Positions 3,076 to 44,505 of a DNA stretch of 64,000 bases are shown in pieces. Made by a program: the position numbers and the translations under genes. Each line of letters starts with the position of its first letter. Position 1 is the stretch's first letter. The DNA lies in the NCBI GenBank assembly GCA_051546255.1, contig CP128815.1:496001-560000 (forward strand), read 5' to 3'. The stretch is from Meyerozyma guilliermondii. Taxonomy: Eukaryota. Under the pieces are notes generated by a model. It worked only from the letters and a program-made list of their open reading frames with translations, was not told the DNA's origin and ran no database searches.

Positions 3076-3175
3076 GACGTGGTTTGGAAAATTGGTGGCC
3101 CTACATTCGACGCCCAAACACCCAAAACGTCCCTGCTATCTACAGGAACACAACATCGTGTGCAGGAAGTCTCAC

Positions 3176-3200
3176 CAAATTCAAATCAAACAGAACGCGT
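3176..3200 (+). promoter_or_regulatory. CAAATTCAAATCAA + MCB (ACGCGT) module upstream of PDS5
   Basis: ACGCGT at 3195-3200. The 14-mer at 3176-3189 recurs upstream of SMC1. Confidence 0.6.
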
Positions 3201-3213
3201 CGCATCACAAAGT

Positions 3214-6200
3214 ATGGTGTCTGAGGCGCAGAAGGGGCTGTTGCAGTTCCAAAAGAGTCTCATATCGACCGCAAAGGACCCCATACCACTCAAGGAGCTC
3301 TTGGGCAGATTACAAGTCCTTCAGGAGGAATTGGCCACTTTGGACCAGGATTCCGTTGATTTGAATTCGATCGAAAACGTCAAGAATGAACTTGTAAACA
3401 AGAAATTGTTGAAGCACGCGAATGTAGGAGTACAGGCATATACGTGTTGTGCAATTTCCGACGTTCTACGTGTATATGCGCCGGATGCGCCGTTCACAGC
3501 AGGCGAATTAAGCTTGATTTTCAAAACATTTCTCACTCAAATCGCCCAACTTTCTCACCAGGAGAACCCATATTTCCAGCAACAATCCTACTTGCTTAAA
3601 CGGCTCGCGGAAGTTCGTTCCATCATACTTATCACCGACTTACCAGACGCATCGCAGCTCATCGAATCCACGTTTGAAACGTTCTATTCGGTGGCATCCA
3701 CCAATTTTCCCGCGCGTCTCGAGCCGTTGGCAGCTGATATCTTGGCTGAAGTAATCGCTGAAACCGACCAAATTACCCACCCAGTCCTAAAAATGATCTT
3801 GAACAAGTTCTTGACCAGTGCTCCAGATTCCACCGCCCTTACATCCTCCAAATCTAATATCAGAAACCCAGCTTTCACCTTCTCATTACACATCTGCGAA
3901 CAGAACGTCGACAGGCTCTCGCGTCAGGTTGTTCAGTTCTTCTCTGAGATTCTTGCGGACGCTGTTCCCGACGGTGCCAACGACAAAGACCGCACATCTG
4001 CATTAGAAAGCTTGAGGAAAATCCACACGTTGACGGTTCAGGTGTGGAAGTTTGTGCCTGAGCTTTTGACTGCTGTCATTGGACTCATAGACGATGAATT
4101 GAACGCCGATGATCCTCGGCTCCGCACCATGGCGACTGAAACCATTGGCCAAATGGTGGCCGCTTCTGGTCTGACGCAGAAACTGAACTTTTCAATCGCT
4201 CACAAACTTACCTGGCAACTCTGGCTCAAAAAGACATTGGATGTGTCTCTGCAAGTTCGCTGCAAATGGCTCGAACTGATCCCCAATATCGTCAATGCTA
4301 GTTGTACTTCTGAGATGGCCACCGAGCTTTCTAATGGTGTCACAAAGTGCCTTCTCGATACCGATGATCGAGTACGTTTGACTGCTTGCAAATGCCTTTC
4401 TAGCATATCGTTCGAAGTATTCACGGCTACCATTGGGTCGACCAACATAATGAACACTCTCTTACTCTTGATACGAGAGAGCCATTCAGAAGTCAGAGAG
4501 CAGTCTCTCAGGATACTAGGAAACTACTACAACCTGTATTATATTCTGATCTCAAAGAATGATGCCATTGATTACGGTATGCACGCTGAAGAGGAAAGTA
4601 CTGAATTGTCTGAAATCATCGTCAAAGAAATTCCAAACCATGTCCTTTCCTTGATTTACATCAACGACAAATCCATTAATGCTGCTGTCGACCTTTGTTT
4701 ATTCGAAAAGTTCATTCCTTTCGAAACTAACACCCTGAAAAGAGTCCAGAGAATCATCCAGCTTGTGTCCGTATTAAATGAAAAGAGCCAAAAAGCATTT
4801 TTCGCAATTACTAGGCGACAGCAACAGGTTGCAGGTGTCGTCTCAAAGCTTCTAGATGTGGCCGATAACAAGAAAAGCAAATTGGAAGCCCGAGATGAGG
4901 ACGATAAAGAGAATAACCCGGAACAACAAGGGAAGCAGCTCGAAAAAGTGATCAACTGGATCTGCGCTTCATTTCCCGAAGGTTTGGATACTTATTCCTG
5001 TCTTGAAAGACTTGCACTTTTACACAATCGTCGGTTTTTCAACCTCATGACTGTTTGCATCTCGCCAGAATCAGACTACTCTTCCATCAGAAACTCCATG
5101 AAAGAGTTCCTCAACAAACTTTCGAACCCTAAAAACATCAAGCTTGATTATGAGAAGCTGGTGGTCTCGGCAACTGACATGGTGACAAATCTCAAGCTTT
5201 TGTTGTACCGTGCGTCTCCTCTCATTCACAACGTGTCCAACGTTAATGAGTTGATAACGTACGCAAAAAGTGGAAACGGGCCTTATCATGAAACCGCAAC
5301 AACGATTTTGCAGGATGTTTCTTCTGCACTTCCCGAAGTACTCAAGTCTAGTATTGACAGTCTTGTGCAATTAGTGAATGACGACGATGGGAAAGACAAC
5401 ACCGAAATAATGAGAATGGTATACCATTTCTTGAAGAGATACCCAAACATGTATCCGAATGAGCTCAATAACGATTTGTTGGAGCGAAAAGCAAGAGAAG
5501 GATCGCCGCTGGAAGCGAAATATGCTATCAAGATTTTGAGTAAGAGCCAGACGAAAGAACTATCAGGAGCTGCGATATCCAATTACTTGTTACCTATCGA
5601 CTCGAAGTCTGAACATCTCGCAACTCATATCTCCTCCATCGCTACACTTTTCGAAACAGATCCCATGGCGGTTGAGACCAGTGCTAGCGACATCACCATC
5701 ACTATAATTCAAGAAATCTTGCTAAAGAACGACGTCGAGAGCAGTGATGATACATGGATTGAAAACGTCAAAACTCACACTTCACTTAATTCAAAGATTT
5801 TAGCACTAAGCTTGTTCGTGAACCGTGTTAGGGCTACTACCGATAAAGATGAAGAGTCGTTAAATGAAGTGGGAGTCCCAGTTTTCAAGCTTTTGTATGC
5901 GCTCGTCAACAACGGCGGTGACATTATTAGTACAAAGGGTGACAACAAGCCTTTGCCGCAAAACTATCTGCAACGGTTGCGTCTCGCAGCTGGGTTTGGT
6001 CTACTTAAACTCGCAAAGATTTCCAAACTCGACCACTTTTTTGATGAACGTATTTCGTGCTTGGCCTACTTGGTTCAAGATTCCAACCCAGAGGTGAGAA
6101 GTCGGTTTGTCAAAAAGCTACAGGCAAGTATTACTCACGAAGCCATTTCCGAGAAGTTCCTTCCATTTGTATTCTATGTGGCCAACGAGCCAAATACAAC

Positions 6201-6948
6201 CTTGAAGAGCCTGACTTCGTCATGGGTGAAGTCTTTGTTGAAGAGAGAACAAGGAAAGAACAGTATTCTCGTGGAGCGAAGCTTGGTGAGACTCATACAC
6301 TTGATATCTCATGAAACCAAGTTCTTGGAACAGTTGGAAAACGATCCTCTGAACGCCTATGAGTTTGCTGCCAACTATGTGATTTACTACTTGCAATGCG
6401 TTGAGCGCATGGAAAATGCTTCGCTACTCTACTACCTCGCCAGTCGTGTCAAGCAATACAGAGACAGCACCATTTCACCAGAACTTTATGAGGAAGAGCC
6501 TCGTCAAAGTAAGGTTACTGCTTTGTATTGCATAGCTGAGTTGTGCCAGTTGGCTATCAAAGAAGTCTGCGACTATAAAAATTACTCCATGCAAACATGG
6601 CCAGGAAAACTCCATCTACCCAGCGATATATATGGACCCATGGGATCCAGTGAGGAAGCACACAAGGTAGTGTCAAAAATTTACATTTCAGATAATATTC
6701 AGATTGGATTGAGAAGTTCGATACGAGCAAAGTTTGGTGGTCTTAAACGCCGTGTTGATCCACCTATTTCTCGAACCAAAACCAAGAAAGTGAAGAGAGC
6801 TCGTCTGAAACCAAAAGTGAATAAAAATGTGCCACTTAGAAGCAGCAAACGCTCATCAAAGAAGGTGACATATGTGGAGGTTGGATCGGATGATTCAGAT
6901 GGAAGCTCGAGTGAGTCGGATGATATAGATGACTCGGATTTTGAGTAA
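3214..6948 (+). CDS. PDS5: Sister chromatid cohesion protein Pds5
   Basis: LLKH..VGVQAYTCCAISDVLRVYAPDAPFT N-terminal signature, HEAT repeats, LYYLASRVKQYRD, basic/acidic tail. First ATG at 3214; the track start at 3022 is TTG. Confidence 0.95.
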   Translation: MVSEAQKGLLQFQKSLISTAKDPIPLKELLGRLQVLQEELATLDQDSVDLNSIENVKNELVNKKLLKHANVGVQAYTCCAISDVLRVYAPDAPFTAGELSLIFKTFLTQIAQLSHQENPYFQQQSYLLKRLAEVRSIILITDLPDASQLIESTFETFYSVASTNFPARLEPLAADILAEVIAETDQITHPVLKMILNKFLTSAPDSTALTSSKSNIRNPAFTFSLHICEQNVDRLSRQVVQFFSEILADAVPDGANDKDRTSALESLRKIHTLTVQVWKFVPELLTAVIGLIDDELNADDPRLRTMATETIGQMVAASGLTQKLNFSIAHKLTWQLWLKKTLDVSLQVRCKWLELIPNIVNASCTSEMATELSNGVTKCLLDTDDRVRLTACKCLSSISFEVFTATIGSTNIMNTLLLLIRESHSEVREQSLRILGNYYNLYYILISKNDAIDYGMHAEEESTELSEIIVKEIPNHVLSLIYINDKSINAAVDLCLFEKFIPFETNTLKRVQRIIQLVSVLNEKSQKAFFAITRRQQQVAGVVSKLLDVADNKKSKLEARDEDDKENNPEQQGKQLEKVINWICASFPEGLDTYSCLERLALLHNRRFFNLMTVCISPESDYSSIRNSMKEFLNKLSNPKNIKLDYEKLVVSATDMVTNLKLLLYRASPLIHNVSNVNELITYAKSGNGPYHETATTILQDVSSALPEVLKSSIDSLVQLVNDDDGKDNTEIMRMVYHFLKRYPNMYPNELNNDLLERKAREGSPLEAKYAIKILSKSQTKELSGAAISNYLLPIDSKSEHLATHISSIATLFETDPMAVETSASDITITIIQEILLKNDVESSDDTWIENVKTHTSLNSKILALSLFVNRVRATTDKDEESLNEVGVPVFKLLYALVNNGGDIISTKGDNKPLPQNYLQRLRLAAGFGLLKLAKISKLDHFFDERISCLAYLVQDSNPEVRSRFVKKLQASITHEAISEKFLPFVFYVANEPNTTLKSLTSSWVKSLLKREQGKNSILVERSLVRLIHLISHETKFLEQLENDPLNAYEFAANYVIYYLQCVERMENASLLYYLASRVKQYRDSTISPELYEEEPRQSKVTALYCIAELCQLAIKEVCDYKNYSMQTWPGKLHLPSDIYGPMGSSEEAHKVVSKIYISDNIQIGLRSSIRAKFGGLKRRVDPPISRTKTKKVKRARLKPKVNKNVPLRSSKRSSKKVTYVEVGSDDSDGSSSESDDIDDSDFE

Positions 6949-6980
6949 GTTCTATTAATGTACAATATGCTAACAACATG

Positions 6981-8396
6981 CTAATAATCCATGGGTTTGA
7001 TGTAGTTGAGTTTGCCGGTTTCAAGCCACTCGTCTCCAAGAATACGAAGTCTTGCAGCGCTGGGAAACCTCTTGTCTGCCACCAGTTCAGTCCAGTCAGT
7101 TGCAGCTAATTTAAGAAGCTTATTCGCCTGGTCCTTGTATACCAGTGAGAAGGCATTAGCACTGACTTCCCACCAATTGGCGACACAAGCAAAGTGTGCG
7201 TTGGTGAGCAAGTCTTTTGGACAATTAGCCATGCGTGAGAGAAATTGCCATAAGCGTTGGCTCGAAAACGAAGAGCATTTAACCGATGGAATAGCGGATA
7301 TAGCTGCCCAAACTGTACAGATACCAGCAATTCTTTCGTCATATTTGCTCTCATCTTCCCATTTTCCTTCAGAACGGCGCCAGCCCATTCGTTTACGACC
7401 TTCTTCCGTATCAACCTTGCTCGTGTAGCCGACTATAAATGGGCATTTTTTGACAAAACGAGCCATAAGAAACTCTTCAAAATCAGGAAACCTTTCCAAA
7501 ATTAACTGTACAAACATCGCAAGGGGCAAAGCTGCTGTCTGCTTGACAGTGACTTCGGTTTCGGCTTGGTCCACCACCGCCTTGGCTATGAAGTTCAAGA
7601 TCCAATGATACGAGAGTTCGCCGAGTGAGCGTGATTCTTGAATGGTATTGATCACCTCCGCGGTAAGCTTTGAAACATGCGAACGAGAGTTGGAAAGTTG
7701 TCCAAGCTTGGGATTGATTTTACGCTTCAAAGCGCTGGTCGCCTTTTTGAGGTTAGCATCTTTTCCGAGTGGTTCCACAATAGTGCTTTTGATTTTAGCG
7801 ATAGTCTGCATCTGCCAGGTGTACTCATCGGCAATAGCAGAAGAATTGTAAACGCCTTTACCCAAACGTGCATCCTGTCGCTTCTTTTCTTCCTCGATTA
7901 TACGTTGTTTCTTCGCTTCTTCTTCCAACCGGAGTTTTTCTTCCTCCTTCTTTTTTCGCTCAACTTCAAGAGCCCTTTGTTTCTCCTGTTCTAGACGCTG
8001 AAGCTCTTCTTTTCGTCTTTTTTCTTCTTCCTCCTGTTTCTTCTGTTCAGCTGCTCGTCGACGGGCTTCTTCCTCTTTGTGCTTACGTTCCTGATCGATT
8101 AAATATTGCACTTGCTGCTGCTGAATCCGAAGACCTGCTTCAAACTGCCCGGTCAATGCATCTATCGCCTGCTTTACTGCTTCTCTCAGGCTCGAATAGG
8201 ACGGCGTAGACAACGGAGACAGCATTTTCTGAGAAACTACTGTACTGAAATCATCATTGGAAGTTTCAAACAGATCTATCCAATGAGTCGAAAGCCTATC
8301 AAATTTTTCAGCCACAGACAATGGATCATAGCGCAGCATGGTGATGGCAGGAGCATCTTCTACCACATCTAACTCGGGAGGGAGGCCGAAACGCAT
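6981..8396 (-). CDS. GLE1: mRNA export factor/nucleoporin Gle1
   Basis: MRFGLP start, E/K/R coiled coil, INPKLGQL, WILNFIAKAVVDQAETEV, ARFVKKCP. Confidence 0.93.
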   Translation of the reverse strand: MRFGLPPELDVVEDAPAITMLRYDPLSVAEKFDRLSTHWIDLFETSNDDFSTVVSQKMLSPLSTPSYSSLREAVKQAIDALTGQFEAGLRIQQQQVQYLIDQERKHKEEEARRRAAEQKKQEEEEKRRKEELQRLEQEKQRALEVERKKKEEEKLRLEEEAKKQRIIEEEKKRQDARLGKGVYNSSAIADEYTWQMQTIAKIKSTIVEPLGKDANLKKATSALKRKINPKLGQLSNSRSHVSKLTAEVINTIQESRSLGELSYHWILNFIAKAVVDQAETEVTVKQTAALPLAMFVQLILERFPDFEEFLMARFVKKCPFIVGYTSKVDTEEGRKRMGWRRSEGKWEDESKYDERIAGICTVWAAISAIPSVKCSSFSSQRLWQFLSRMANCPKDLLTNAHFACVANWWEVSANAFSLVYKDQANKLLKLAATDWTELVADKRFPSAARLRILGDEWLETGKLNYIKPMDY

Positions 8397-8498
8397 GGCT
8401 TACAGGTTGAGGAAGAATGGATTTTTCCTGCAACCTGCGATTACATAATTATGAGATTTTTTGAGGTTTTTGAAGTCTCGAAATTTTCACCAACCACC

Positions 8499-9359
8499 AT
8501 GATGCGGTTTGCCAGAGCGTTCTCCAGCGGTAGCCGGCTTCTGCGGACTGGCTACTCCACAGTTGAACCTGTGCACCATTTGGTGAAGATAAGGAAGGCT
8601 CGTTTGAAGCCAAAGTATCAACCTCTTGTTATCCCCAAGACCGAAGTGGAATCGGTAGGTTACCGTCCAACGGAAATATGTCAAGACCGAGTGGAGGAAC
8701 ACTATGAGAATACACTCAAACTGGACCTCTTATTGCATTATTACAAGCACGAAGCCAAGACCATCGAGGGAGAAAAAAAGAGATCGTGGGGCACGGACTC
8801 GCCATATGCCTTGTACAGAACATTGAAAAAGCCCAAGGGATTGGTGCGTCCCACGCAAGATATACATCCTATTGGTCCTTCCAATGTTCCAAAACTCGTT
8901 GGAATATCAATCAACTCGTATAACTCCGAGGCCCTTGAAGAGGGATGGTTAAACATTTCCCTGAGACTCCAGTTGGCTCAGATCACCAACGTGAAACCCA
9001 AGCAACTTTACAACAAGTCCAATATTCTCCAGTGGAGATGTAGAGTTGGACGGCCATGTGGCTCCAAGGTTGAATTGACTGGCAGAGACATGACCCAATT
9101 TGTGTCCACATTGACCGAGTTGGTGCTTCCAAGAGTCCGTACTTTCCAGGGAATCAAGAACACCAGTGGAGATGGATCAGGTAACATCTCGTTTGGATTG
9201 CTGCCTGAAGACGTCAAGTATTTCCCCGAAATCGAAAATTTCCAGGAATTGTTTCCAAACCTTTTTGGTTTCCATATCACGTTCAAGACTACAGCCAGAA
9301 CCGACGAGCAAGCCCGCGTGTTGCTCAGTGCCATGGGCTTCCCATTTTACAACCCATAA
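8499..9359 (+). CDS. MRPL7: Mitochondrial ribosomal protein uL5m
   Basis: L5 motifs VLPRVRTFQG, SGDGSGNISFG, GFHITFKTTARTD. Arg-rich presequence from ATG 8499 (8451 is an alternative start). Confidence 0.92.
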   Translation: MMRFARAFSSGSRLLRTGYSTVEPVHHLVKIRKARLKPKYQPLVIPKTEVESVGYRPTEICQDRVEEHYENTLKLDLLLHYYKHEAKTIEGEKKRSWGTDSPYALYRTLKKPKGLVRPTQDIHPIGPSNVPKLVGISINSYNSEALEEGWLNISLRLQLAQITNVKPKQLYNKSNILQWRCRVGRPCGSKVELTGRDMTQFVSTLTELVLPRVRTFQGIKNTSGDGSGNISFGLLPEDVKYFPEIENFQELFPNLFGFHITFKTTARTDEQARVLLSAMGFPFYNP

Positions 9360-9584
9360 TGTAAATAGCAATAGAGAAAAAATAACGGCGGCAGCCTCTT
9401 CTTATATAGTGACGAATGCAGCCGTTCATGCACGATATCATGCAGCGATTGGCAAATGTAGTAACCAAAGCGCAATGGCGGCATAGTTGTACATGTTGGG
9501 GTCACAGTTTTTTGAAGGTATGCACAAGTTTGCAACCATCCTGCCTATATAAAGTGCGCTTCGCGTCCCTCAGATTCACGTTTT

Positions 9585-10187
9585 ATGGACCCTTACAAGA
9601 ATTCCATAGTGCATGAATATAGGGTTTTATATTCCACACGAATAGTTCAAAAGGATAAAAAATGGTGTGACGGCATCTTGAGGTACTACGAGGTGAATAA
9701 CAAAGTTGAGCTCAGTAATCCTACTCAATTATTGCTCGTTAGTGACTTTCTTAGTGGCTCCGTAGGTTTTGTGATGAGCGAAATGTTGGCTAGTGGGCAC
9801 GAATTCAAGCTCCCGAACAAGCTGTTCCTCGTTATGGTGGATGAGAAGATAGGCTCGTCAGTTAGGGACGTTTCCCAAGCGATTAGAGCAAGAAACGACA
9901 CAGTAATGGTGCCACAGCCATACATAAAATCCGAACCATTGATCAAAAATGAGCCTCTGGTTGAAAAACTTGTTGCAAGCACTCGCTTGGTGACCGATAA
10001 CAAGCCTATAAGGCCACAAGTGGTCCGGAAGGTGGGGATTTCTCGGCCTGTTCCGCGGAAGAAAATCACCGTGAAGCAAGAAACCTCACAGTTCAAAATC
10101 CCCTCCAAGATACAACGATCTCATGTCCGGATCCCACCCAGATCCTCTACTGTATTCCAGTACCTAAATCTAGGCTGCTACAATTGA
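9585..10187 (+). CDS. MTE1: Stand-alone DUF2439 (ZGRF1-N / Mte1-like) protein
   Basis: N-terminal YRVLYST..QKDKKWCDGIL matches the DUF2439 pattern. TATATAAAG at 9546. Confidence 0.6.
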   Translation: MDPYKNSIVHEYRVLYSTRIVQKDKKWCDGILRYYEVNNKVELSNPTQLLLVSDFLSGSVGFVMSEMLASGHEFKLPNKLFLVMVDEKIGSSVRDVSQAIRARNDTVMVPQPYIKSEPLIKNEPLVEKLVASTRLVTDNKPIRPQVVRKVGISRPVPRKKITVKQETSQFKIPSKIQRSHVRIPPRSSTVFQYLNLGCYN

Positions 10188-10205
10188 TTTGCTTAACATT
10201 TATTA

Positions 10206-10370
10206 CTACTTGCGCAGCGCCTCACGAGCAACCATGATGGGTACAGCGTTCGAAGTGAAGATTTTCACCACTGGGAACGAAGAAGCAAACCCATTGATAG
10301 CGCCAAGTGCGGGCCTGTTGGTCATTCTAGCTACTAAGGCTTGTGCTGGCAATTCGGTGTTGGAAGACAT
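10206..10370 (-). CDS. Candidate 54-aa small protein (MSSNTELPAQ...)
   Basis: A/C-rich ATG context, preferred codons (TCT TCC AAC ACC GAA TTG CCA), TAG TAA TAA triple stop. Confidence 0.45.
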   Translation of the reverse strand: MSSNTELPAQALVARMTNRPALGAINGFASSFPVVKIFTSNAVPIMVAREALRK

Positions 10371-10443
10371 GTGTGCTATTTGTGTGTTGAAGCTAACGAA
10401 ACTAGACTTGCACCACAAATGCAAACCGCAGCTGTTTCTGCAT

Positions 10444-11127
10444 CTAGGGCGCCACCCCGCTCCAGAGTAAAGCGGTGCCGTCGCGGACCACGGTATTGAC
10501 AAGTCCTGCTCCAGTTTTAAACACACGTAATATGAATTTGGCAGTACCCGGTATAATCCTATCCATGATGTGATTCATGATCATTTTTGTCTGTTCGACC
10601 CCACCGTATTGCTCATCCACATCAATATTCTCCAGCCACATGGTATCGCCGTTTCTAGTGCTGTCAATACCCAAAGTGGCCAATATGGGAACGTGAATAA
10701 TAGCCTTTTTCAAACCCTTGAACTCGACCCAGTGAAATTTTAGAGCGTTTTCGGCAATGAGCGGCGCTACTGGAAGAAGCGATTTCCCGTTTCTTTGAAA
10801 GATTCCACCGATAATATCACCCGGAAAAAACATGGCATTCTGCCGTTTCGAGGCAGCCTTGGTGCGTGCAAGAAATAAACATGGCTGTCCCTCCACAACA
10901 CAAAGATCTTGGCCATATGGAATGCTATCGTTGAGAAAAAGTGTCCCAATCGATTTTCCTTCGCGGCACATGTACAAGTGGAATGTACCACTATTTCTAT
11001 ATTGAAACTCGATCTTGTATCCCGAAAAGGGGACGTCTGAACCATACGACTTGCAGATCCTCGACTGGTCTGCTCCAGCACAAACTACTGCCAAAATCGA
11101 GAAGAATATTATTAATATTAATTGCAT
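10444..11127 (-). CDS. Orphan secreted protein, 227 aa
   Basis: Signal-peptide-like MQLILIIFFSILAVVCAG at ATG 11127, several Cys, NDS sequon, internal KR. No family recognised. Confidence 0.6.
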   Translation of the reverse strand: MQLILIIFFSILAVVCAGADQSRICKSYGSDVPFSGYKIEFQYRNSGTFHLYMCREGKSIGTLFLNDSIPYGQDLCVVEGQPCLFLARTKAASKRQNAMFFPGDIIGGIFQRNGKSLLPVAPLIAENALKFHWVEFKGLKKAIIHVPILATLGIDSTRNGDTMWLENIDVDEQYGGVEQTKMIMNHIMDRIIPGTAKFILRVFKTGAGLVNTVVRDGTALLWSGVAP

Positions 11128-11192
11128 TATGAAATGGGTGCAAATTGCGACCAGCACAAAAACCTCACTTTTGAACCTCACTTTTCGAAATT

Positions 11193-12101
11193 TCACTTTT
11201 TGGCCCTTTTTCTTGCCTTGGCCCCCTCGTTCTCGTGAAGCAATTTTATATGACGTTTGAGTGAGTCCTTCCGATAAAAGTACTTTCCGCAATTCAAATG
11301 GCATGGAAATACCATTTCCATTATACGTTGGCGTTCCTCAGGCAGCACGGTTTCGATTTCCCTGCCAGCCTTTCCCTTTGGAAAATGTGCCATGCAGTGT
11401 CTACGAAGATCCATTTTGCGGGTGTGGCCAAGCACATTCCATGGGCAGCTTTTGAGTGGGCATTTGAATGGTCGATTTTGTCTAATGCGATCCAAATGCA
11501 ATGCAAAGTCTAGATGATGATGGAACTCTTCTGTGCAGTGAGTACATTGAAGAAGACAGGTTCCAAACAGCTTTATTTCTTCTGGGGAAAACTGGCTCCT
11601 CAAGAGATCCACTAATTTAGGGCGATATTGTGCTCTCTCCATTATGGGACTTGCTCCTGTCAAGATAGGTTCTGGAATTTTTGGCTCTAATTCCTCGACA
11701 TGTACGGTTTCTGGCTCCGAGAGGTCGTCATTGGACATTGAAAAAAGAGAGTCCGAACTGCTGGACTCAGTGAGTCTCGAGTAAATATCGAAATATGTCG
11801 CATGGTCAAGTTCACTCGATGCCATTTGGTCGCCAGAATAATCGATACCCAAACCGAGAGGATGCGGCTCAAACGTCGCCGTATCTATTGTCATTGGTGA
11901 GCCGCGCACTGGACTGGAGTACATTGCCAGACCCAACTTGAGGTTGAGGTTGATATTATCCTTGACGAGGCAGTTACTTTCAAAGTCGACGTAAAATCCA
12001 AAAGGTCCTCCAAGTCTTCCTGGAGCTGGATTTACAGGACATGCTAACATAGGGTCGAGCTCAGGCTCATAAGTCCAGTTGAGGTCGCTAACAAATTCCA
12101 T
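11193..12101 (-). CDS. RME1: C2H2 zinc-finger transcription factor, Rme1 family
   Basis: Three fingers, including FKCPLKSCPWNVLG....LRRHCMAH and CGKYFYRKDSLKRHIKLLH, typical of Rme1. ATG at 12101. Confidence 0.8.
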   Translation of the reverse strand: MEFVSDLNWTYEPELDPMLACPVNPAPGRLGGPFGFYVDFESNCLVKDNINLNLKLGLAMYSSPVRGSPMTIDTATFEPHPLGLGIDYSGDQMASSELDHATYFDIYSRLTESSSSDSLFSMSNDDLSEPETVHVEELEPKIPEPILTGASPIMERAQYRPKLVDLLRSQFSPEEIKLFGTCLLQCTHCTEEFHHHLDFALHLDRIRQNRPFKCPLKSCPWNVLGHTRKMDLRRHCMAHFPKGKAGREIETVLPEERQRIMEMVFPCHLNCGKYFYRKDSLKRHIKLLHENEGAKARKRAKK

Positions 12102-14273: not shown

Positions 14274-14327
14274 CAATGCAAAAAGATGCAATGCAACAAG
14301 ATGCAATGCAACAAGATGCAATGCAAC
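14274..14327. repeat. 15-bp tandem repeat CAATGCAACAAGATG x3.6
   Basis: Read directly from the sequence; one mismatch in the first copy. Confidence 0.9.
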
Positions 14328-14562
14328 TACCAATAACTAAACGGATCTGCCCCGCATTAATACGAGATGTCGCATTTCCTGTTTTCCGATAACAATGCGA
14401 GACATTCTGAAACTAATCTGAAACGCCCGGGACGGCGCCGCACCCGGACCTCATTTCGCCTAAATCTCCCGTAACCTAGAAGCTCGACCCGCGCGCTGGT
14501 GTTTGGCTGGCCCGCAGAATCACGTTATTCTCTGCAAGGGCTCTTCTTGGCAATAATCGGAC

Positions 14563-17506: not shown

Positions 17507-17711
17507 ACAGAGACAAAATCAGCCAAGAACTGGTTAAAGCAAGTATAGTTTGTCTGCAGGCCAGATCATCGGTTCCGCTGCACGGCTGCCTGCGCCCGCA
17601 TCATGCACGCTTAAACAAGTCATTCTCGACCTGCAGAAGAAGCTTCACTTACATGAGCTAGCTTGTAATTACATAGACTATCTTCTGACTATATACATTA
17701 TCTTTTTCCTA

Positions 17712-18254
17712 TCATATTTTCGTCCTATACTTCTCATAACTGGGCTTCGATAATGCGTCTTTGGTGATTTCTATATCCTTATTGATATCTGCAATCAATG
17801 CTTCCTTGGTGGTGTAATTGAGTTCGGGCCGGATGTGGCCCATAACTGCATACCGGAGGTCGGCACCGTAGAAGTTTTCCCGGAACTTGTGAATGATATG
17901 AACTTCGGCGGTTTTGGTCTCATTATTATAAAATGGATTCCACCCAATCGACATGGCCATTGGGAATGTTTCAAGTTCATCGTCAGCAAGTTTTGTTCCA
18001 TTATTAAAGTACACTTTTTTCCCATCAGAACGCTGCTTAGCGGCGCATTCTTGATTCCGAGGCACCAATCTGCACCACCCATAATAGATTCCGGTCTCCA
18101 ATTTATTTAATTCCGAGGTTACTGGAATATTGGCAGTCGGAATTCCAAGCTCGGCCGAACCGCGCCCAAACCCGCTCTCAATTGTCCCGGCCCCAATAAT
18201 AGGGTATGGCAGCGTGATCTCGTCAGGAATCTTGGTTTCGGGCCTCGAAGTCAT
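17712..18254 (-). CDS. FMN1: Riboflavin kinase
   Basis: GFGRGSAELGIPTAN, MSIGWNPFY, AEVHI, IRPE. Confidence 0.97.
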   Translation of the reverse strand: MTSRPETKIPDEITLPYPIIGAGTIESGFGRGSAELGIPTANIPVTSELNKLETGIYYGWCRLVPRNQECAAKQRSDGKKVYFNNGTKLADDELETFPMAMSIGWNPFYNNETKTAEVHIIHKFRENFYGADLRYAVMGHIRPELNYTTKEALIADINKDIEITKDALSKPSYEKYRTKI

Positions 18255-18292: not shown

Positions 18293-18312
18293 GCACGTGA
18301 CTATCACGTGAC
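18293..18312. promoter_or_regulatory. Tandem CACGTGAC E-boxes (Cbf1-type) in the 95-bp FMN1/ULP1 divergent promoter
   Basis: GCACGTGAC at 18293-18301 and TCACGTGAC at 18304-18312. Confidence 0.65.
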
Positions 18313-22630: not shown

Positions 22631-23495
22631 GGCAAGGAAGAGAAGATGATTGCGATAAGCGTGAGGAGCGGCTGCGCTACGTGCAGGAATAGACAGATGC
22701 GAAGCGAGATACGAAAGTCAAACGGAAAGAAGTGAAAAAAGATTAGAGGAATACTGAAGACATCTGACTCGAGGCACCAGACTTTTGATATGTTTTGACC
22801 AGCCTTTATTTGATTTCTTTTGAGGTTTTTATTTTCAAAAAGTGATTTTCTCTGATAATTTGCAGTCAATGAATTCGGAAAATCGTAGTTATTTTTGTAA
22901 CCAAACTAGCTCTTTGATTATTTTCCGATTCTTAAGTAGTTGAATAGCTCCGAAATCTTTTCTCAAATTCTAGTCTTGCTTAAAAGAAGTTTTGGTGGCT
23001 CTTAAGTCTTTCATTTGGAGCTTGAGATTCTGCTTTATTTGAGCTCAATAACGATTACAGAGTTGTACGCTTCATAATTGCATACATCTGATATCAGTCA
23101 TGGTCCTCTAAGCAATTGTTTGAGGTCAGACTCCAGTATCAAATCATAATTACAATGTCCTTGAAGGCATCTTGAGTCAATAAAAAGTCTGATTACCCTT
23201 ATATCTGATGTCGAAATTCAGTTAACATTTCACTGCCAAAATGACCAAGGACCCTCTTCACTTCAGTATCGACCTTTTTATTTTTCTAATGTTCTGCTTT
23301 TGCAGTCGAAAAAATTCGTATCAGATAAAGAATGCATACTGACTACATGATAGTTGACTTCGTCCAGCCTACTTCTTTCCACAATATCGAATTATTTCCT
23401 GAATGTCGTGGAGCACTTCAGTTGTAACAAGTATTAATCAGCCTGAAGTCAAAAACTGAATCTCACCGTAGTGTCTTCTCTATGTACTTAGTCTA

Positions 23496-23650: not shown

Positions 23651-23719
23651 GCGAAAATTTTTGGCTTTTATACCGCGAACATCTGCAGGAATGGTGGGTG
23701 GATGAAGATGAAACCTTCA

Positions 23720-24769: not shown

Positions 24770-24856
24770 GTGGCAATTGCGATCGCGATAAAAATTGTGT
24801 TGGGGTTGGTACTGCAGAATAGTGAGGTATCTGCAGTCCATTTCTCTATCTGAGAT

Positions 24857-29118: not shown

Positions 29119-29175
29119 TTGGCTCACAGCTTTTTTTTCAGGCTGCAAATCAATATTCCGGGACTGCAGGTAACA

Positions 29176-32880: not shown

Positions 32881-32900
32881 GGTGAAAGACGTGTTTTGTG

Positions 32901-32931
32901 CGCGTCTTCGCGTTGCATTGATTTGAATTTG
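32901..32931 (-). promoter_or_regulatory. CAAATTCAAATCAA + two ACGCG (MCB core) upstream of SMC1
   Basis: Minus strand reads CAAATTCAAATCAAtgcAACGCGaagACGCG. Confidence 0.6.
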
Positions 32932-33071
32932 AGTGCGGTGTATGGGTGGATAACCAATTTGATCTGGGGTAGTTGGTGTTTGGGCCGAGCGCCTTGGAGC
33001 GTACGGCTCTACCATGAGGATTGAGACTAAATTGATAACAATTGACAGGAACGCCACAGCAAAACCTCCCG

Positions 33072-35108: not shown

Positions 35109-35278
35109 CCAAATAGTGCAAAATGAGTATTCTGACTATTTGAGAAGACGATATAACTGGTTTAAAGTCTACTCAGTGTTGGTTATTACTTCAAATTGCT
35201 TTTGGTGTAATTGAGTTTACTGACCTACTTCTAGTCTTTTAATCAAATTTTTCTCTCCTCTATTATACACTATAGTAC

Positions 35279-35359
35279 ACTTGAACACTGGGGGATTTCC
35301 CATATGCCCAAATTTGTCTACTTGAACACCGGGGGAGTTCCTAAGCGACCCATCTTCTG
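35279..35359 (-). repeat. 41-bp diverged tandem duplication of the 3' end of the SPP41-like CDS
   Basis: ACTTGAACACYGGGGGA at 35279 and at 35320. Confidence 0.8.
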
Positions 35360-37777: not shown

Positions 37778-37916
37778 GGGTTATTGTTGTGATGAGATTG
37801 ATTGTGCGAGTTTTGTGTGCACCCGTGCACCGATAAGATTTGCACCCAGAAAGGAACAGTAACAGAGAAATACCGAAAAGATTACAGACCTGGCATTTAT
37901 ATTGATCAAGTCAATT

Positions 37917-37952
37917 CTCATAGCTCTACTCATAGCTCTACTCATAGCTCTA
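37917..37952. repeat. 12-bp perfect tandem repeat CTCATAGCTCTA x3
   Basis: Directly abuts the stop codon of the gene at 37953-38798. Confidence 0.95.
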
Positions 37953-38798
37953 TTACTCATCGCGCAATGCAAAATTGACAATTAATCCAAGCCGGCCATG
38001 GCCCACTCCATCTTGTCCTCCCTGCTTGATGGTCCAGTTAAAGTTGTCCAATTTTTCGTTGGCGTAACGAAGAACATCAATGTCAAACGTGCTGTTACCG
38101 TAGGTGGGAATACTCACAGAATACTTGGAATCGGCCATTTTGACAAAGTTGGTGTCGAATTGAAGGGTGTAGGTTGCAGCATCATTATAGACAAAATCTT
38201 CACAATGACTGAGTTTGGTAAAGAACTTTTTACGCTCAGGAGGGTTGTCTGGGATGGTCAAGATGTTATCTGTGTTGGAATTGAGGTTTTCCTTGGGATT
38301 TTTCTTATCCAAATCGACCCCCATATAGGTGAAGCTGTTGAGGGCTGGAGAATAAAGATACGGCTTTTCGCCATATATATCGCCCTTGACGGTGCCATTG
38401 ATGAACCAGGTGAAAAACCGGAGTCCCGTGGACAAAAGTGTGGTGGGAACATACTCCTTAATGGGAATTGTAAAGTCGTTTCCGAACAAAAGTTCAGACC
38501 CTTTGATGGCGGTTTTGGGTGTGAATTTCACGTCCAACCTAAGATTTGGAAGAGGAGAGGTTTCTGAGGATTCTGTGGTGTTTGCTGATTCTCCATTGAG
38601 ATACTTTCCATCGCCCAAGTTGTAAAAACTGTTTGCAACATGTGGTTTTGCACCATCAAAGTTCTTGATACTAATCAAAATTTTGAACAAACCAATATCA
38701 CTTTCTACCGAAACAGCTTTTCCTGAATTCACCGGAACCACCTGTGACTCCTCTGGGTTGTAGGAAGTTCCAGCACGAATTAATAATCGCTTGACCAT
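37953..38798 (-). CDS. Conserved fungal DUF1769/UPF0590-like protein
   Basis: L.IRAG.SY...VPVN, LLFGNDF, GDIYGEKPYLYSPAL, RKKFF. Confidence 0.7.
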   Translation of the reverse strand: MVKRLLIRAGTSYNPEESQVVPVNSGKAVSVESDIGLFKILISIKNFDGAKPHVANSFYNLGDGKYLNGESANTTESSETSPLPNLRLDVKFTPKTAIKGSELLFGNDFTIPIKEYVPTTLLSTGLRFFTWFINGTVKGDIYGEKPYLYSPALNSFTYMGVDLDKKNPKENLNSNTDNILTIPDNPPERKKFFTKLSHCEDFVYNDAATYTLQFDTNFVKMADSKYSVSIPTYGNSTFDIDVLRYANEKLDNFNWTIKQGGQDGVGHGRLGLIVNFALRDE

Positions 38799-39192
38799 GG
38801 TAATTACAGAGCAAACGGGCTACAAGTTGTTGCTGCGGTTGTGCAGGCTGGTGCACGGGTGCGGCCGACTCAGTAGTTGCAGCCGTCACCGCCAGCGGTC
38901 GCGCCGGATCGCTTATTAAGCCGGCGACTCACGTGCCACAGGGTGCTTGGTGCATGGGTGTAACTAACTCCACGGAAAAGAAGTAAATTGAAAAAGCAGA
39001 AGCAGAAACTTATATAAAAGGAAATGACAAAACACCCTGTTATCTCGGTTTCTCCTTTTTTGTCTTCCAAATCCTTTCTTTCTTGGGTGTCCTTCTCGGA
39101 CACCGGTCCCCCATCGCTTGGATGCAGGACCCCCACCTGCAACGGTGCGAACTATTTAAGTGTCCGAAAATTCCCCCCATACCGCAACTACC

Positions 39193-40161
39193 ATGACCAA
39201 TTCTCTTGAACAATTGAAAGCTACCGGAACCGTTATTGTTACCGATACCGGTGAGTTTGAGTCCATCGCCAAGTACAAGCCTCAGGATGCCACCACCAAT
39301 CCATCTTTGATTTTGGCTGCTTCTAAAAAACAAGAATACGCCAAGTTGATTGACGTTGCCATTGACTACGCCAAGGACAAGGGATCCAGTAAGAAGGAAA
39401 AGGCTAACATTGCCTTGGACAGACTTTTGGTGGAGTTTGGTAAGAAGATTTTGGATATTGTTCCAGGCCGTGTTTCCACCGAGGTTGATGCCCGGTTGTC
39501 CTTTGACAAGCAAGCCACCATTAACAAGGCACTTTCCATTATTGACTTGTACGAGAAGGAAGGTATTTCTCGTGACCGGATTCTCATCAAGATTGCTTCC
39601 ACTTGGGAGGGTATCCAGGCTGCACGTGAATTGGAAGAGAAGCACAATATCCACTGTAACTTGACATTGTTGTTCTCTTTCGTGCAAGCCGTTGCTTGTG
39701 CCGAAGCCAAGGTCACCTTGATCTCTCCTTTCGTTGGAAGAATCTTGGACTGGTACAAGGCTAGCACCGGTAAGGATTACGATGCTGAATCGGACCCTGG
39801 TGTTCTTTCCGTTCGTCAAATTTACTCCTACTACAAGAAGTTTGGTTACAAGACCATTGTCATGGGTGCCTCGTTCAGAAACGTTGGAGAAATCAAGGCT
39901 CTTGCTGGTTGTGACTTTTTGACTGTGGCTCCAAAGTTGTTGGAAGAGTTGTACAACTCTCAAGATGACGTTCCCCAGAAATTGGATGCAGCTAAGGCTC
40001 TGAGTGATGATCTTGAAAAGGTTTCATACGTTGACGATGAGGCCCAATTCCGTCTTTTGTTGAACGAGGACGCCATGGCTACTGAAAAGTTGGCCCAAGG
40101 TATCAGAAACTTTGGTAAGGATGCCGACACTTTGTTGAAGGAGTTGGAAGAGAGATTTTAA
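39193..40161 (+). CDS. TAL1: Transaldolase
   Basis: [42 protein letters not shown]; strong codon bias. ATG at 39193. Confidence 0.98.
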
Positions 40162-40164
40162 TAA

Positions 40165-40300
40165 ACTCGAGTTTTACCGAGGTTGAATGTCGAGAGTGAT
40201 TATCGAGAGTGAATATATCGAGAGTTATAATCAGTAGTGAATTCATTATCGAGTAGTTTTGTTCGTTTTTTTCGAGTAGCTTATTCGTTTATCGAATAGT
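40165..40300. repeat. Degenerate ATCGAG(A/T)(G/A) repeats 3' of TAL1
   Basis: About 7 copies of a TCGAG/TCGAA core, e.g. TATCGAGAGT twice. Confidence 0.65.
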
Positions 40301-40342
40301 TTTTATCAGCCGTTCGCATTATCAATTCCTGCACACACCAGT

Positions 40343-40351
40343 CCCACGTGG
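40343..40351. promoter_or_regulatory. Pho4-type site CCCACGTGG upstream of the VTC gene
   Basis: CACGTG at 40345-40350 with G/C flanks. VTC genes are established PHO-regulon targets. Confidence 0.65.
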
Positions 40352-40386
40352 AGTCTTAAAACCTTCCTCCAATCTATTCTTCACCA

Positions 40387-42747
40387 ATGTTTTTTGGCTC
40401 AAAGTTGGACCAGGAGGTCTATCCTCCATGGAAAGACTACTACATGAACTACAACAACTTGAGAAAGCTTCTCAAGGAGGGAGTGATACTTAAAGATAGT
40501 TGGACTGATAAAGACGAACAAAACTTTGTTAGTGCTTTGGACCACGATCTTGAAAAAGTGTATACTTTTCAAACCAAGCAATATGACGAGTTGAGCGAGA
40601 CATTGGACGACTTGCAGACCAAAACCGAGACTCCAGGCAAGTTTGACACGGCACAATTTCTGACAAAATTGGAGGAATCGTTGGAATTGGCTCAGGAATT
40701 GGATAGGTTTCAAAGACTCAATTACACTGGGTTCACCAAGATTGTCAAGAAACATGACCGGATCCACCCTGAGTTTCTGGTGAAACCATTGTTGAACGTT
40801 CGTCTTAAAAACTTGCCATTTCATTCGGAAGACTACCTGCCTCTTCTCTATAAGATCTCCGCATTGTTTCAATTTTTAAGGGACAACTACAATATTGACC
40901 AGACGCTCTCCAATCTCTCGCTGTTGAACGAGGACACCACGCAAGACGTTAAATCGTTCAAATTTTGGATCCATCGTGACAATTTGATGGAGGTGAAAGC
41001 GACGATTCTTCGTCATCTTCCTGTTTTGGTTTACAACAACGATAATTACGAGGACGACGATGACGACGATGACGCCCTGAGCAACGATCCGGTCATCAAT
41101 ACGCTTTACTTTGACAATCCCAACTTTGATCTCTACAACGATAAGCTCATCAAGAAGGCTAATGCTGCGACTTTGAGAATCAAATGGATTGGAAAATTGC
41201 TTGATAATCCCAAGATTTCCGTGGAGAAAAAGAGCTTTGATCCTACTTCCGACACGTTTGATGTCAACGAGAAGGTTGTGCTCAAGGAAAAGTACTTGGA
41301 TACGTTTGTCAAGGGAAACTTTTCACCTGAAAAACTCATCAAAAAGATGGAAAAACGTGGAGAAAATAGCAAGGATTTTGCTGATACCGTTCAAAACTTG
41401 GAATCTTTCATAACAGAACACCATTTGCAGCCTGCTGTGCGCAGTGTATATCGTCGAACTGCGTTCCAGATTCCAGGAGACGACAAGATTAGAGTGGTAA
41501 TCGACTCGGATTTGATGTTCATTCGTGAAGATTCTTTTGACGAGCAGCGACCCATTAGAGATCCTAAGAAATGGCATCGTACCGACATTGACTCCAAAAT
41601 TCTGAACCCATACTCGCTTCTTAGAAGTGGTGAATATTCGAAATTTCCATACTCGGTGATGGAGATCAAGATCAAGACGTCCAAGAACAATAAGCGTCTT
41701 CTCTGGGTCGACGAATTGGTTCATTCTCACTTGGTCAAAGAGGTTCCTAACTTTTCCAAATTTGTTCATGGAGTGTCTGTCTTATTCTTGGAAGACGACA
41801 AGCTTCAGAACATTCCCATGTGGTACCACGACCTTGAAACAGACATCAAGGTTGATCCTCAACAGGCGTATATCGACTCCAGAAGACGGTCTGTCAAGCA
41901 GCAAAATGACGAGGATAATCTTGCCAAATTCAAGCTGATGGTTGCAAGCAGCAGTCTGTTTTCTCCAAGAAGCAAGTCGTTTTCCGGTGCGGTTTTGACA
42001 GCTCCAGAAGCTGCTTCTCCTCAGATTTCTGGGAAAGAGTCACTGGTGTTGACCAGCGGACTGGTTCCTTCTCCTCCCACCGCCCCATTGGCCAGCATTG
42101 AAGATGCCAATGAAGACGACGATCTTTATCCACTGTCGGATGACGACTCGCCTACGGGAATAACTCGAATTCTCAAACTTCCTGGCCGACTCAACGTATC
42201 CAAATTAATTGATGTTGACTCAGAAGGAGAAGAAATCGAACTTCCTGCCGGTGTAACCAAACCGGAAACTTATATCAAGAATTCTGGTCCTTTGAAGATC
42301 GAACCAAAGGTGTGGATGGCCAACGAACGGACCTTCAACAGATGGCTCCATGTGACCACCTTGATGTCGACTTTGACTTTTGTCATTTACTCTTCATCTA
42401 TGCGTGCCAATTCGCCCCAAGTTGCGAATATCTTGGCTTACATTTACTTTGGTCTCACATTATTTTGCGGGGTTTGGGGATACTACATTTTCCTTAGACG
42501 CCGTAGTATCATTATGGAACGTTCCGGAGCACATCTCGATAACGTGGTGGGCCCATTGGTTGTGGCTTTTGGATTAATAGCTGCGTTGGTTGTGAATTTT
42601 GTGCTTGGTTTCCGCCATATTGCCGCTGCCAACTCGGTCAATGCTCAGGGAGTGTCCAGCTTTGTTTCGGAGTCATTTTATGCCAACAACCCGTGGCACA
42701 AGCAGGTACATGATCTTATGTTCTGGTTGGTGAGAGGTCAATTTTAG
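40387..42747 (+). CDS. VTC3: Vacuolar transporter chaperone subunit Vtc2/Vtc3 (SPX-VTC-DUF202)
   Basis: M.FGSKL SPX start, LNYTGFTKIVKKHD, KFWIH.DN, RTAFQ, FSKFVHG, IEPKVWMANERTF, 3 TM. Confidence 0.9.
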   Translation: MFFGSKLDQEVYPPWKDYYMNYNNLRKLLKEGVILKDSWTDKDEQNFVSALDHDLEKVYTFQTKQYDELSETLDDLQTKTETPGKFDTAQFLTKLEESLELAQELDRFQRLNYTGFTKIVKKHDRIHPEFLVKPLLNVRLKNLPFHSEDYLPLLYKISALFQFLRDNYNIDQTLSNLSLLNEDTTQDVKSFKFWIHRDNLMEVKATILRHLPVLVYNNDNYEDDDDDDDALSNDPVINTLYFDNPNFDLYNDKLIKKANAATLRIKWIGKLLDNPKISVEKKSFDPTSDTFDVNEKVVLKEKYLDTFVKGNFSPEKLIKKMEKRGENSKDFADTVQNLESFITEHHLQPAVRSVYRRTAFQIPGDDKIRVVIDSDLMFIREDSFDEQRPIRDPKKWHRTDIDSKILNPYSLLRSGEYSKFPYSVMEIKIKTSKNNKRLLWVDELVHSHLVKEVPNFSKFVHGVSVLFLEDDKLQNIPMWYHDLETDIKVDPQQAYIDSRRRSVKQQNDEDNLAKFKLMVASSSLFSPRSKSFSGAVLTAPEAASPQISGKESLVLTSGLVPSPPTAPLASIEDANEDDDLYPLSDDDSPTGITRILKLPGRLNVSKLIDVDSEGEEIELPAGVTKPETYIKNSGPLKIEPKVWMANERTFNRWLHVTTLMSTLTFVIYSSSMRANSPQVANILAYIYFGLTLFCGVWGYYIFLRRRSIIMERSGAHLDNVVGPLVVAFGLIAALVVNFVLGFRHIAAANSVNAQGVSSFVSESFYANNPWHKQVHDLMFWLVRGQF

Positions 42748-43347
42748 AGAATAATTGATAATCAGTAGATAATAATATGAAGAAAGGAGTAAAACTAGGA
42801 GACGGATATTGAGAATATTGGAGTACTTGTGCTTTTCAATTTTCCTTTCCTCGCTTTGCTTGTTCGCTCTAATTTAATGGCTGCAATTCCAAAGTTGCTG
42901 CGAAAAACAGAAAATAAATGAATAGTAAAGACTTGAAATAGACTTAATATGACTTTAAAGTAACCAAATAGAAACAAATTGCAGCCAATCTGGTCGTGCA
43001 ATCCTCAATTTGAAATTTCAAATTGGCACTTTTGATAGCATCGAGTTAACCGCGCGCGGGACAATTTCATCTTGGGTTGCGCGAACCAATTTTTTGCACC
43101 CAACTTTTGCGAAAAGTGGGACAAATATTTTTTGTATGCTGAATGTGATCAGCTGCTGAGAAACGTAGATTGGTAGCATACTCTATCGCGCTTTTCAATA
43201 CTAGTACGGAAAATGAGATTGTCATATTTATCCGTTACATTTGGTAAGAGCTATACTACTTAAGTCCATTTTTGGAATTTGGCACACACACTACTATATT
43301 TGAGGTTGCAAAATTGCAAAATGGCTGCTAAGTTAATTGACATTGAA

Positions 43348-44147
43348 TTAAGTCTTTGGTCGTTTTGAGCCTCTTTGTTCCCTTGCCATTTCCACAATTG
43401 AATCGATAGCTTCAGTTGATTTTTCCCGAAGATGCATCGACATTTGTCGCAATGGAAGATTTTTCAGTCTCCGAAGATGCTCCAATTTATTGGTCAATTC
43501 TTTTCCCTCTGGTGTATGAGGATCTACCTTCAGCTCAATATAAGATACCAATGGCTTTGTCCTGAAAATGTATTGACGTTGGGCGTTAGACTTGGCCCAT
43601 TTTATTCCCTTTTCTTTGCATTGCTTTTCAAGATTTCTTATACAATGCTCATTGAAGAAATACTCATTAGCTACTTCGTTGACTGTTTTTGCCCCTTTTT
43701 TGAATATGATTTCAAGGAGAGCAGCCTCAGTAGTTTTTACTGCCGCCGTCTGTTCCAGTAAAGAATTTTCTGTGGAACCAGATGAATTTGAGTGTGTGCT
43801 ACCAGGAGTATCGGCAGCAGCAGCAGCTGCTGCTGCTGTATCGCTCGATTCCTGATCAATTTGACCAAGTTGTCTTCTTATAAGAGGTGACGTATTTGAC
43901 GATTCTGAGTCTTCTCTCTGGGATCTTTATTGCTGCGCAATTCTTGGATCAGGCGTTTCTGCTCTGCAAACTTCTTCTCCATTTGCAACTGCATTGTCAG
44001 TATTTGCGTTGTCATCTCCTTTATTTGAGTTACCATCTCCTCCTTTAGCGTTCTCATTTGTGTTGCCAACTCCTCCCTCATTTGCGTTGCCATCCACGTA
44101 AGGTGCCTAGCAATGCTTTCTTCTTGTCGTTTAAATTCTATGGACAT
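43348..44147 (-). pseudogene. Coiled-coil + GCR1_C-like (Hot1/Msn1/Gcr1-type) DNA-binding gene split by a -1 frameshift
   Basis: ORF1 (44147-43878) overlaps a 192-codon stop-free -1 frame (43926-43348) encoding AKTVNEVANEY..IRNLEK..GIKWAKSNAQRQYIFRTKPLVSYI..KLEHLRR. Confidence 0.65.
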
Positions 44148-44505
44148 ATTGCGTTGTAGATTGTCATTGTGGTCTTCACTCCAGTTGTAATTCACAACGA
44201 AAATTCTCGTATTCGGTTTCAAGCATTATTTAAATCACCGGTAGAAATAGTAGGATTAGATTTTAATTTCCTTTGGTATCCATTCAATAAATTTTGTCTT
44301 CCACTTGTTACACTCTTAGGACATCTCGTAATATAGACAACTGGCTCCAATATTAGGCGGTTTAGTCTGAACTGATTACTGTTGAAGAACGCGTATCTCA
44401 ATCGCAGCTCACTTTCAGTTAGCCTTTATATGCAGTCCATCCCACTTCCTCTTGCACCCATGCACCACACACCTCTATATCAATTCTTCGCGTGGACACC
44501 TCACT

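Follow-up and report, generated by a model that had tools for sequence, protein, structure and literature searches.

An oriented YCTGCA word upstream of about a third of the genes in a 64-kb Meyerozyma guilliermondii window: a candidate promoter-organising element

In the 64-kb stretch of Meyerozyma guilliermondii DNA analysed here (the window), the word CCTGCA lies upstream of about a third of the genes, and not of most of them, in a preferred orientation and at a nearly constant distance from the start codon; this clustering and this orientation are real in the window and are not a product of chance. The element, which in its wider form reads YCTGCA, is best read as neither an initiator nor clearly a site of the APSES regulators, but as kin to the sites of general regulatory factors. 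We give about an even chance to the explanation that YCTGCA is an oriented factor-binding element situated about 45 nucleotides (nt) upstream of the transcription start, which appears fixed relative to the ATG through short leaders. All results were obtained from this window, from protein records and from published papers. The window is compact, with 29-33 genes, several intergenic spacers of just 30-140 nt and an intergenic share of 23%. The protein clusters of its genes contain near-identical members named Meyerozyma guilliermondii, the RET3 protein shares 95% identity with one named Meyerozyma sp. JA9, and TAL1 shares 84-85% identity with Millerozyma and Debaryomyces proteins. Unless stated otherwise, distances begin at the T of TGCA and end at the A of the start codon.

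The position of TGCA was analysed without any picking, using the first ATG of 32 open reading frames (ORFs), and the upstream regions were compared with their dinucleotide shuffles and rotations. TGCA starts between -50 and -57 in 10 of the 32 genes, and none of 2000 dinucleotide shuffles placed TGCA in 10 genes within any 8-nt interval. It is the best positional 4-mer of the 256, the runner-up being CAAT (nine genes at -17 to -24). In the family-wise comparison, covering all 4-mers at all positions, 10 genes were matched by 7 of 500 dinucleotide shuffles and by 6 of 500 rotations. In a curated set of 29 genes, which also served for counting upstream ATGs, TGCA is present at -44 to -57 in 12, and in none of the eight curated genes situated beyond 45 kb. 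The first-pass annotation of this DNA had placed the element before most start codons, a claim that these counts do not bear out. The 14 TGCA words that it had listed were all recovered at their coordinates, and the distance of 43-53 nt that it had given is 44-54 nt when measured from the last base of TGCA and 47-57 nt from the T.

The extended word gave a clearer result. Sense CCTGCA is found inside a 12-nt interval in six genes (ECM27, YME2, TRM2, TAL1, VTC3 and Duc1, the DUF1769 gene), the same six as annotated before, and this makes it the best hexamer of all 4096; the count of six was not matched in any of 300 rotations by any hexamer at any position. CCTGCA occurs 22 times in total on both strands, 14 of these occurrences being intergenic, and the density of TGCA is 2.2-fold higher in intergenic than in coding DNA. 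In the zone from -47 to -57, six CCTGCA words are in the sense orientation and one is antisense; the proposed orientation therefore stands with the exception of PDS5, whose CC flank is on the opposite strand. The spread of the motif position is about 10 nt although the intergenic lengths run from 57 to 394 nt. As for the site of a general regulatory factor, many unrelated promoters are concerned: the 12 curated genes for TGCA and, for sense CCTGCA, the six genes together with MRPL7 and an snR46-type small nucleolar RNA (snoRNA) gene.

The TGCA hits merge at least two motifs, YCTGCA and a longer 13-mer, GCACCCRTGCACC. In the sites outside the 13-mer, YCTGCA has C, G or A as its next base. The TGCA words of SPP41 (-52 and -44), of RET3 (-53 and -45) and one of the two in Duc1 are part of this 13-mer, of which the window contains three exact copies and one copy with a single mismatch (Table 1). 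At two mismatches or fewer, nine matches were counted against a shuffle mean of 1.29, and none of 100 shuffles reached nine. The 13-mer may resemble Rap1- or Reb1-type sites. A further word shares the zone: FMN1 and ULP1, correctly described before as devoid of TGCA and provided with paired boxes, possess a pair of CACGTG boxes, one at -45 and the other at -56, and VTC3 carries one at -42. These boxes occupy the CCTGCA zone, as would suit a site that organises promoters of such short length.

Protein records pointed to the transcript starts of two genes. The TAL1 records P0002 and P0003, which bear different source labels, carry the five added N-terminal residues MGATT where the window encodes HTATT; P0002 is an exact match to the 322 residues of the window TAL1 and P0003 differs at one residue. 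The ATT of these added residues agrees with the in-frame upstream codons of the window, whereas the MG does not. The MRPL7 record P0335, from a 926-nt contig, starts with MG followed by EVSKFSPTTMM; the window reads MRFFEVFEVSKFSPTTMM and encodes VFEVSKF there. One foreign Met-Gly shared by two unrelated genes is in keeping with a cDNA adapter that ended in ATGGG and was joined to the 5' end. ATGGG is presumably the end of a common template-switch oligonucleotide. From these N-termini we infer the mRNA 5' ends of TAL1 and MRPL7 given in Table 1. That of MRPL7 lies downstream of the first ATG of the frame (8451), so Met17 is the likely start. The MG N-terminus of P0352 was rejected as a 5' end, since its Gly is genomic and its Met corresponds to a genomic TTG codon, as were the GLE1 records P0342 and P0341, both 5'-truncated. 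Searches with RET3 and with the N-terminus of VTC3 yielded no further N-terminus of the transcript type, and in cluster look-ups of 30 window proteins (23 found, 7 absent from the collection) P0335 was the only record of this kind.

With these 5' ends, the T of sense CCTGCA lies 45-46 nt before the predicted start in TAL1 and 42-43 nt before it in MRPL7. In both genes the motif is separated from the start by an A/T-rich box, TATTTAAG at -31 to -24 in TAL1 and TACATAATTA at about -30 to -21 in MRPL7. MRPL7 is an independent case, outside the ATG-anchored set, its motif being at -22 from the first ATG and at -70 from Met17; from the intergenic density, we estimate the chance of a sense CCTGCA within a 5-nt interval at about 0.002. 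In ZGRF1-N, snR46, TAL1 and RET3 a TATA-type box follows the motif with a T-to-T distance of exactly 15 nt. The CCTGCA ahead of the snR46-type TATA box, noticed in the first-pass annotation, was found 9 nt before TATAAAAG, with the T of TGCA 62 nt ahead of the Rfam-aligned RNA 5' end (23625); the Rfam score of this gene call, 40.4 bits, is slightly below the 43-bit gathering score. The possibility that CCTGCA itself is a TATA box was rejected: it is G+C-rich and spans about -48 to -40, with the separate A/T-rich box of TAL1 and MRPL7 at -31 to -21.

Other evidence suggests very short leaders, of about 10-30 nt. Upstream of the 29 curated genes, 3 ATGs were counted between -1 and -30 against 13 expected (P=0.001), and 13 against 13 expected between -31 and -60. 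TATAWAW boxes are situated at -39 from the ATG in ZGRF1-N, -53 in orf302, -46 in PTR2 and -41 in a sugar transporter gene, and the start codon of PTR2 is not in doubt because the next Met is residue 108. According to Lu and Lin (PMC7849388), TATA boxes lie 50-120 nt before the starts in all budding yeasts tested except Y. lipolytica. Boxes at -39 to -53 from the ATG are too near for this TATA-to-start range, which hints at a classic spacing and very short leaders. The near-constant distance between motif and ATG would then result from a motif-to-5'-end spacing of about 42-46 nt plus very short leaders. The fixed position relative to the ATG, as first proposed, is therefore retained insofar as it exceeds shuffles and rotations, and is better explained by the spacing to the 5' end.

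The arrangement of MSP1 and SGD1 is in agreement with this. Their ATGs are 110 nt apart, and two copies of TCTGCAGT each lie 47-48 nt from their own ATG; such a back-to-back pair suits outward-facing promoters, one per gene, better than a pair of start sites. The value of -47 for MSP1 holds only with Met32 as the start, a choice favoured by the N-terminal sequence, the first ATG of the frame (24862) being beyond the motif. Public gene calls differ in length for both MRPL7 (251-302 amino acids, aa) and MSP1 (322-380 aa). Probably the first ATGs of the two frames are not start codons, and Met17 and Met32 are.

In the explanation that we favour, YCTGCA (mostly CCTGCA) would sit about 42-46 nt ahead of the transcription start and about 10-15 nt upstream of a TATA or TATA-like box. 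A putative sequence-specific protein would bind it beside the pre-initiation complex and would help to fix or to open these very short promoters, and in other genes the CACGTG boxes or the 13-nt motif would take the same zone. The position, the orientation and the enrichment of the word are observed; the start sites of the two genes, the binding and the function are inferred. Several observations weigh against this explanation. Both start sites were deduced from protein N-termini and a presumed adapter, and the evidence base is confined to one 64-kb window. Under a constant spacing of 42-46 nt, the leaders of MSP1, SGD1 and Duc1 would measure 1-6 nt, seemingly too short; YME2, Duc1 and VTC3 have no A/T-rich box 15 nt past TGCA; and the offset of +15 between TGCA and TATA (two exact TATA boxes and four with one mismatch) is not above other offsets over the whole window. 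The region upstream of an snR49-type gene is without TGCA, and about 64 nt separate the RNA 5' end from the nearest TATA-like box. Among relatives, TAL1 served to scan metagenomes and matched 80 loci; L001 (80% identical) and L002 (72% identical) were the closest, and TGCA is absent before TAL1 in both. In these two more distant yeast contigs, TGCA at -44 to -57 precedes none of seven L001 genes and at most two of seven L002 genes; of the two L002 words, neither is CCTGCA and one is inside an intron. Neither contig reproduces the pattern of the window. In Table S6 of Tsankov et al. (PMC2897762), the D. hansenii 7-mers CCTGCAA, CCTGCAG and CCTGCAC score +0.11, +0.24 and -0.19 against -2.78 for CACGTGA, and the C. 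albicans CCTGCA 7-mers score similarly and are not nucleosome-depleted; any chromatin role in Meyerozyma is thus not common to those relatives. C. albicans, moreover, is described by Lu and Lin (PMC7849388) as using start-site scanning, with TATA 50-120 nt before the start. The literature search found no paper tying CCTGCA to yeast promoter architecture and no start-site data for Meyerozyma.

Three other explanations were weighed against the same data. The word could be a conventional regulon site, for example of the APSES Efg1/Efh1 (Sok2/Phd1) type, lying near the start merely through short upstream regions and having no positioning role; we find this unlikely. TGCA is said to be bound by budding-yeast APSES regulators (PMC4862756), Efg1 is presented as a global regulator in related yeasts (PMC8980467), and a motif present in about a third of the genes and in none of the eight beyond 45 kb would suit a regulon. 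However, the chromatin immunoprecipitation motifs of Efg1 are given as TATGCATA, RTGCATRW and TGCAT (PMC8980467), and TGCAT is found on either strand in none of 11 sites, so that the APSES link suggested in the first-pass annotation is weak and keeps the TGCA core as its support. The genes concerned are also unrelated in function (a cohesin factor, a tRNA methylase, mitochondrial proteins, transaldolase, polyphosphate, a snoRNA), and the spread of about 10 nt in position, over such variable intergenic lengths, and the 6:1 orientation bias also speak against a regulon site. That the TGCA sites are unrelated to one another, reflect local composition and were chosen post hoc from one window appears highly improbable. 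This reading draws on the intergenic excess of TGCA, on the 3 of 11 positional genes that owe a TGCA to the separate 13-mer, on a runner-up 4-mer found at nine genes and on a family-wise P for 4-mers of only about 0.013; it is opposed by the hexamer comparison, which covered 4096 words at all positions, and by the 5' end of MRPL7, which independently falls at a TAL1-like distance from a sense CCTGCA.

The least plausible of these explanations makes TGCA an initiator, the CA being the pyrimidine-purine start and the leaders measuring about 47-54 nt. A C-A step is indeed present in every TGCA, a trivial and non-diagnostic likeness; in 11 motif genes, 2 ATGs were counted in the 553 nt from TGCA to the ATG against 11 in the 682 nt upstream; and a TATA consensus occurs 57-130 nt upstream of the TGCA words of SPP41 and TAL1, a distance typical of scanning yeasts (PMC7849388). 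The two predicted 5' ends, as read from protein N-termini, are nevertheless both downstream of the motif by 42-46 nt and not within it, the motif of the snoRNA gene precedes a TATA box and lies 62 nt ahead of the RNA 5' end, and the depletion of ATGs over the 29 genes ends at -30. Leaders starting at the motif would, in addition, endow SGD1 and RET3 with out-of-frame upstream ATGs.

The factor-binding element could be part of a more general promoter plan, which we consider possible but rather doubtful: Meyerozyma promoters would be compact and non-scanning; the TATA-binding protein would have its site about 30 nt upstream of the start, the leaders would measure about 10-30 nt, and an oriented CCTGCA at about -45, specific to the lineage, would position the machinery in a third of the genes. 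If this plan is true, a yeast of the Candida (CUG) group would be an exception to the rule, reported in PMC7849388, that all budding yeasts after Yarrowia find their starts by scanning 50-120 nt past TATA. The hints from TATA boxes 39-53 nt before the ATG and from leaders of about 10-30 nt concern the question of when and where budding yeasts acquired scanning. Should the pattern be genome-wide, a simple sequence rule would serve to locate promoters and transcription starts in Meyerozyma, which is used in biotechnology and biocontrol; the element would also be a compact, oriented promoter part for engineering, and would add a further case to the documented turnover of promoter-organising factors among yeasts.

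Table 1. Promoter elements, predicted transcript ends and other features of the window. Distances are counted as in the text unless stated otherwise.
Feature	Position	Strand	Remarks
TAL1 CCTGCA, sense	39136..39141	+	T at -55 from ATG 39193
TAL1 TATA-like box TATTTAAG	39153..39160	+	starts 15 nt past T of TGCA
TAL1 mRNA 5' end, predicted	39183..39184	+	leader 9-10 nt; basis P0002/P0003 N-termini
MRPL7 CCTGCA, sense	8427..8432	+	antisense for GLE1
MRPL7 mRNA 5' end, predicted	8471..8472	+	leader 27-28 nt from Met17 (8499); basis P0335 N-terminus
ECM27 CCTGCA, sense	17555..17560	-	T at -52
YME2 CCTGCA, sense	22682..22687	-	T at -55
TRM2 CCTGCA, sense	29165..29170	-	T at -50; merely 8 nt past stop codon of upstream SMC gene
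Duc1/DUF1769 CCTGCA, sense	38842..38847	-	T at -47; additional TGCA at -57
VTC3 CCTGCA, sense	40328..40333	+	T at -57; then CACGTG at 40345
snR46-type snoRNA gene CCTGCA	23684..23689	-	ahead of TATAAAAG (23672-23665), 9-nt gap, T to T 15 nt
MSP1 TCTGCA, sense	24813..24818	-	T at -47 from Met32 ATG (24769)
SGD1 TCTGCA, sense	24830..24835	+	T at -48; back to back with MSP1 copy, 19 nt apart
PDS5/hydrolase CCTGCA	3161..3166	-	sense for hydrolase gene (-89), antisense TGCAGG for PDS5 (-53)
ZGRF1-N/DUF2439 gene TGCA (as TTTGCA)	9531..9534	+	at -54; 15 nt ahead of TATATAAA (9546-9553)
SPP41 promoter 13-mer GCACCCGTGCACC (class II)	37819..37831	+	spans TGCAs at -52 and -44
Duc1 promoter 13-mer GCACCCGTGCACC (class II)	38850..38862	-	spans TGCA at -57
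Duc1/TAL1 intergenic ACACCCATGCACC	38949..38961	-	13-mer with one mismatch
RET3 promoter 13-mer GCACCCATGCACC (class II)	44454..44466	+	spans TGCAs at -53 and -45
FMN1/ULP1 two CACGTG boxes	18294..18310	.	-45 and -56 from both ATGs
ZGRF1-N TATAWAW box	9546	+	
orf302 TATAWAW box	12154	-	
PTR2 TATAWAW box	47711	-	
Sugar transporter TATAWAW box	56778	-	
snR49-type H/ACA snoRNA gene	53390-53522	-	50.3 bits; directly past EXO5 stop codon

Some further observations concern the motifs and their surroundings. Three orphan CCTGCA sites (12947, 61381 and 17630) were of no use as gene predictors, no ORF being found at the expected distance. A 54-aa ORF at 10370 has TGCA at -53 and no Pfam match, and it is doubtful as a gene. 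The word CAATT is present in seven genes within a 10-nt interval, 19-28 nt before the ATGs and recurring at about 20-25 nt, frequently as CGCAAT(T); examples are the regions 56759, 22654 and 24781, and it is also seen 20 nt past the snR46 TATA box. CAATT may be a start-site or leader motif. The MSP1/SGD1 spacer (24775-24800) contains one GCGATCGCGAT, and the region upstream of EXO5 (51700-51813) is dense in GCGATCGC-type words and TTCGCAATCGCT repeats. At the protein level, the N-terminally extended RET3 homologue P0232 retains the region of the 13-mer as amino acids, which P0122 does not, and MSP1 relatives retain I-[LV]-Q-Y-Q-P-Q across the TGCA; such conservation in extended homologues is only a hint, because codons cannot be read from proteins.

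Concerning the genes of the window, an intron in Duc1, suggested by variants of 262-263 aa, was rejected in view of the lack of GT-AG at those borders. The ORFs orf286 and orf302 (10444-12101, minus strand) share 112 nt, read in different frames, and belong to one protein cluster; a frameshift may have split a single gene here, or the two may be members of a repeat family. The 90%-identity clusters of FRA1, MSP1, YME2, FMN1, ECM27, orf302, GLE1 and the hydrolase also contain NCBI proteins under the name Naganishia cerealis (QFC19_006568 to 006581), whose locus tags follow the gene order of the window. The assembly of this basidiomycete seems to contain a Meyerozyma contig.

CCTGCA can finally be compared with known promoter elements. 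Like the sites of general regulatory factors (Cbf1 CACGTG, Reb1, Abf1, Rap1), it is a short and specific word with a preferred place in many unrelated promoters. In S. cerevisiae the sites of these factors lie roughly at -80 to -120. CCTGCA differs in being nearer to the start (about -45), in being strongly oriented and in the word not being nucleosome-depleted in D. hansenii and C. albicans, according to Tsankov et al. (PMC2897762). The same source describes lineage turnover of general regulatory factor sites, with a CACGAC site specific to C. albicans, and, for D. hansenii, a member of the same larger yeast group, very short nucleosome-free regions and a greater reliance on such sites. With the APSES sites, the window sites have in common the TGCA core (that of Sok2/Phd1; PMC4862756), by construction; the Efg1 words TGCAT and RTGCATRW (PMC8980467) differ from them, as none of 11 window sites has a T after or an A before TGCA. 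The window motif is, moreover, fixed in position, near the start and upstream of unrelated genes, unlike APSES sites. In-vitro motifs of Sok2/Phd1 may read CCTGCA, a statement for which the literature search found no source. The upstream TFIIB recognition element (BREu), the proximal sequence element (PSE) of small nuclear RNA genes and HomolD/HomolE of fission yeast are, like CCTGCA, oriented elements that precede the start by a defined spacing; CCTGCA has no sequence likeness to them and is not limited to one gene class. BREu, a G+C-rich element, directly abuts the TATA box on its 5' side, whereas a gap of 9-11 nt separates the motif from the TATA-type box in TAL1, ZGRF1-N, snR46 and RET3. 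An initiator shares with the motif the C-A step and a place near the 5' end of the gene, and differs from it in that the predicted starts are 42-46 nt downstream of CCTGCA.

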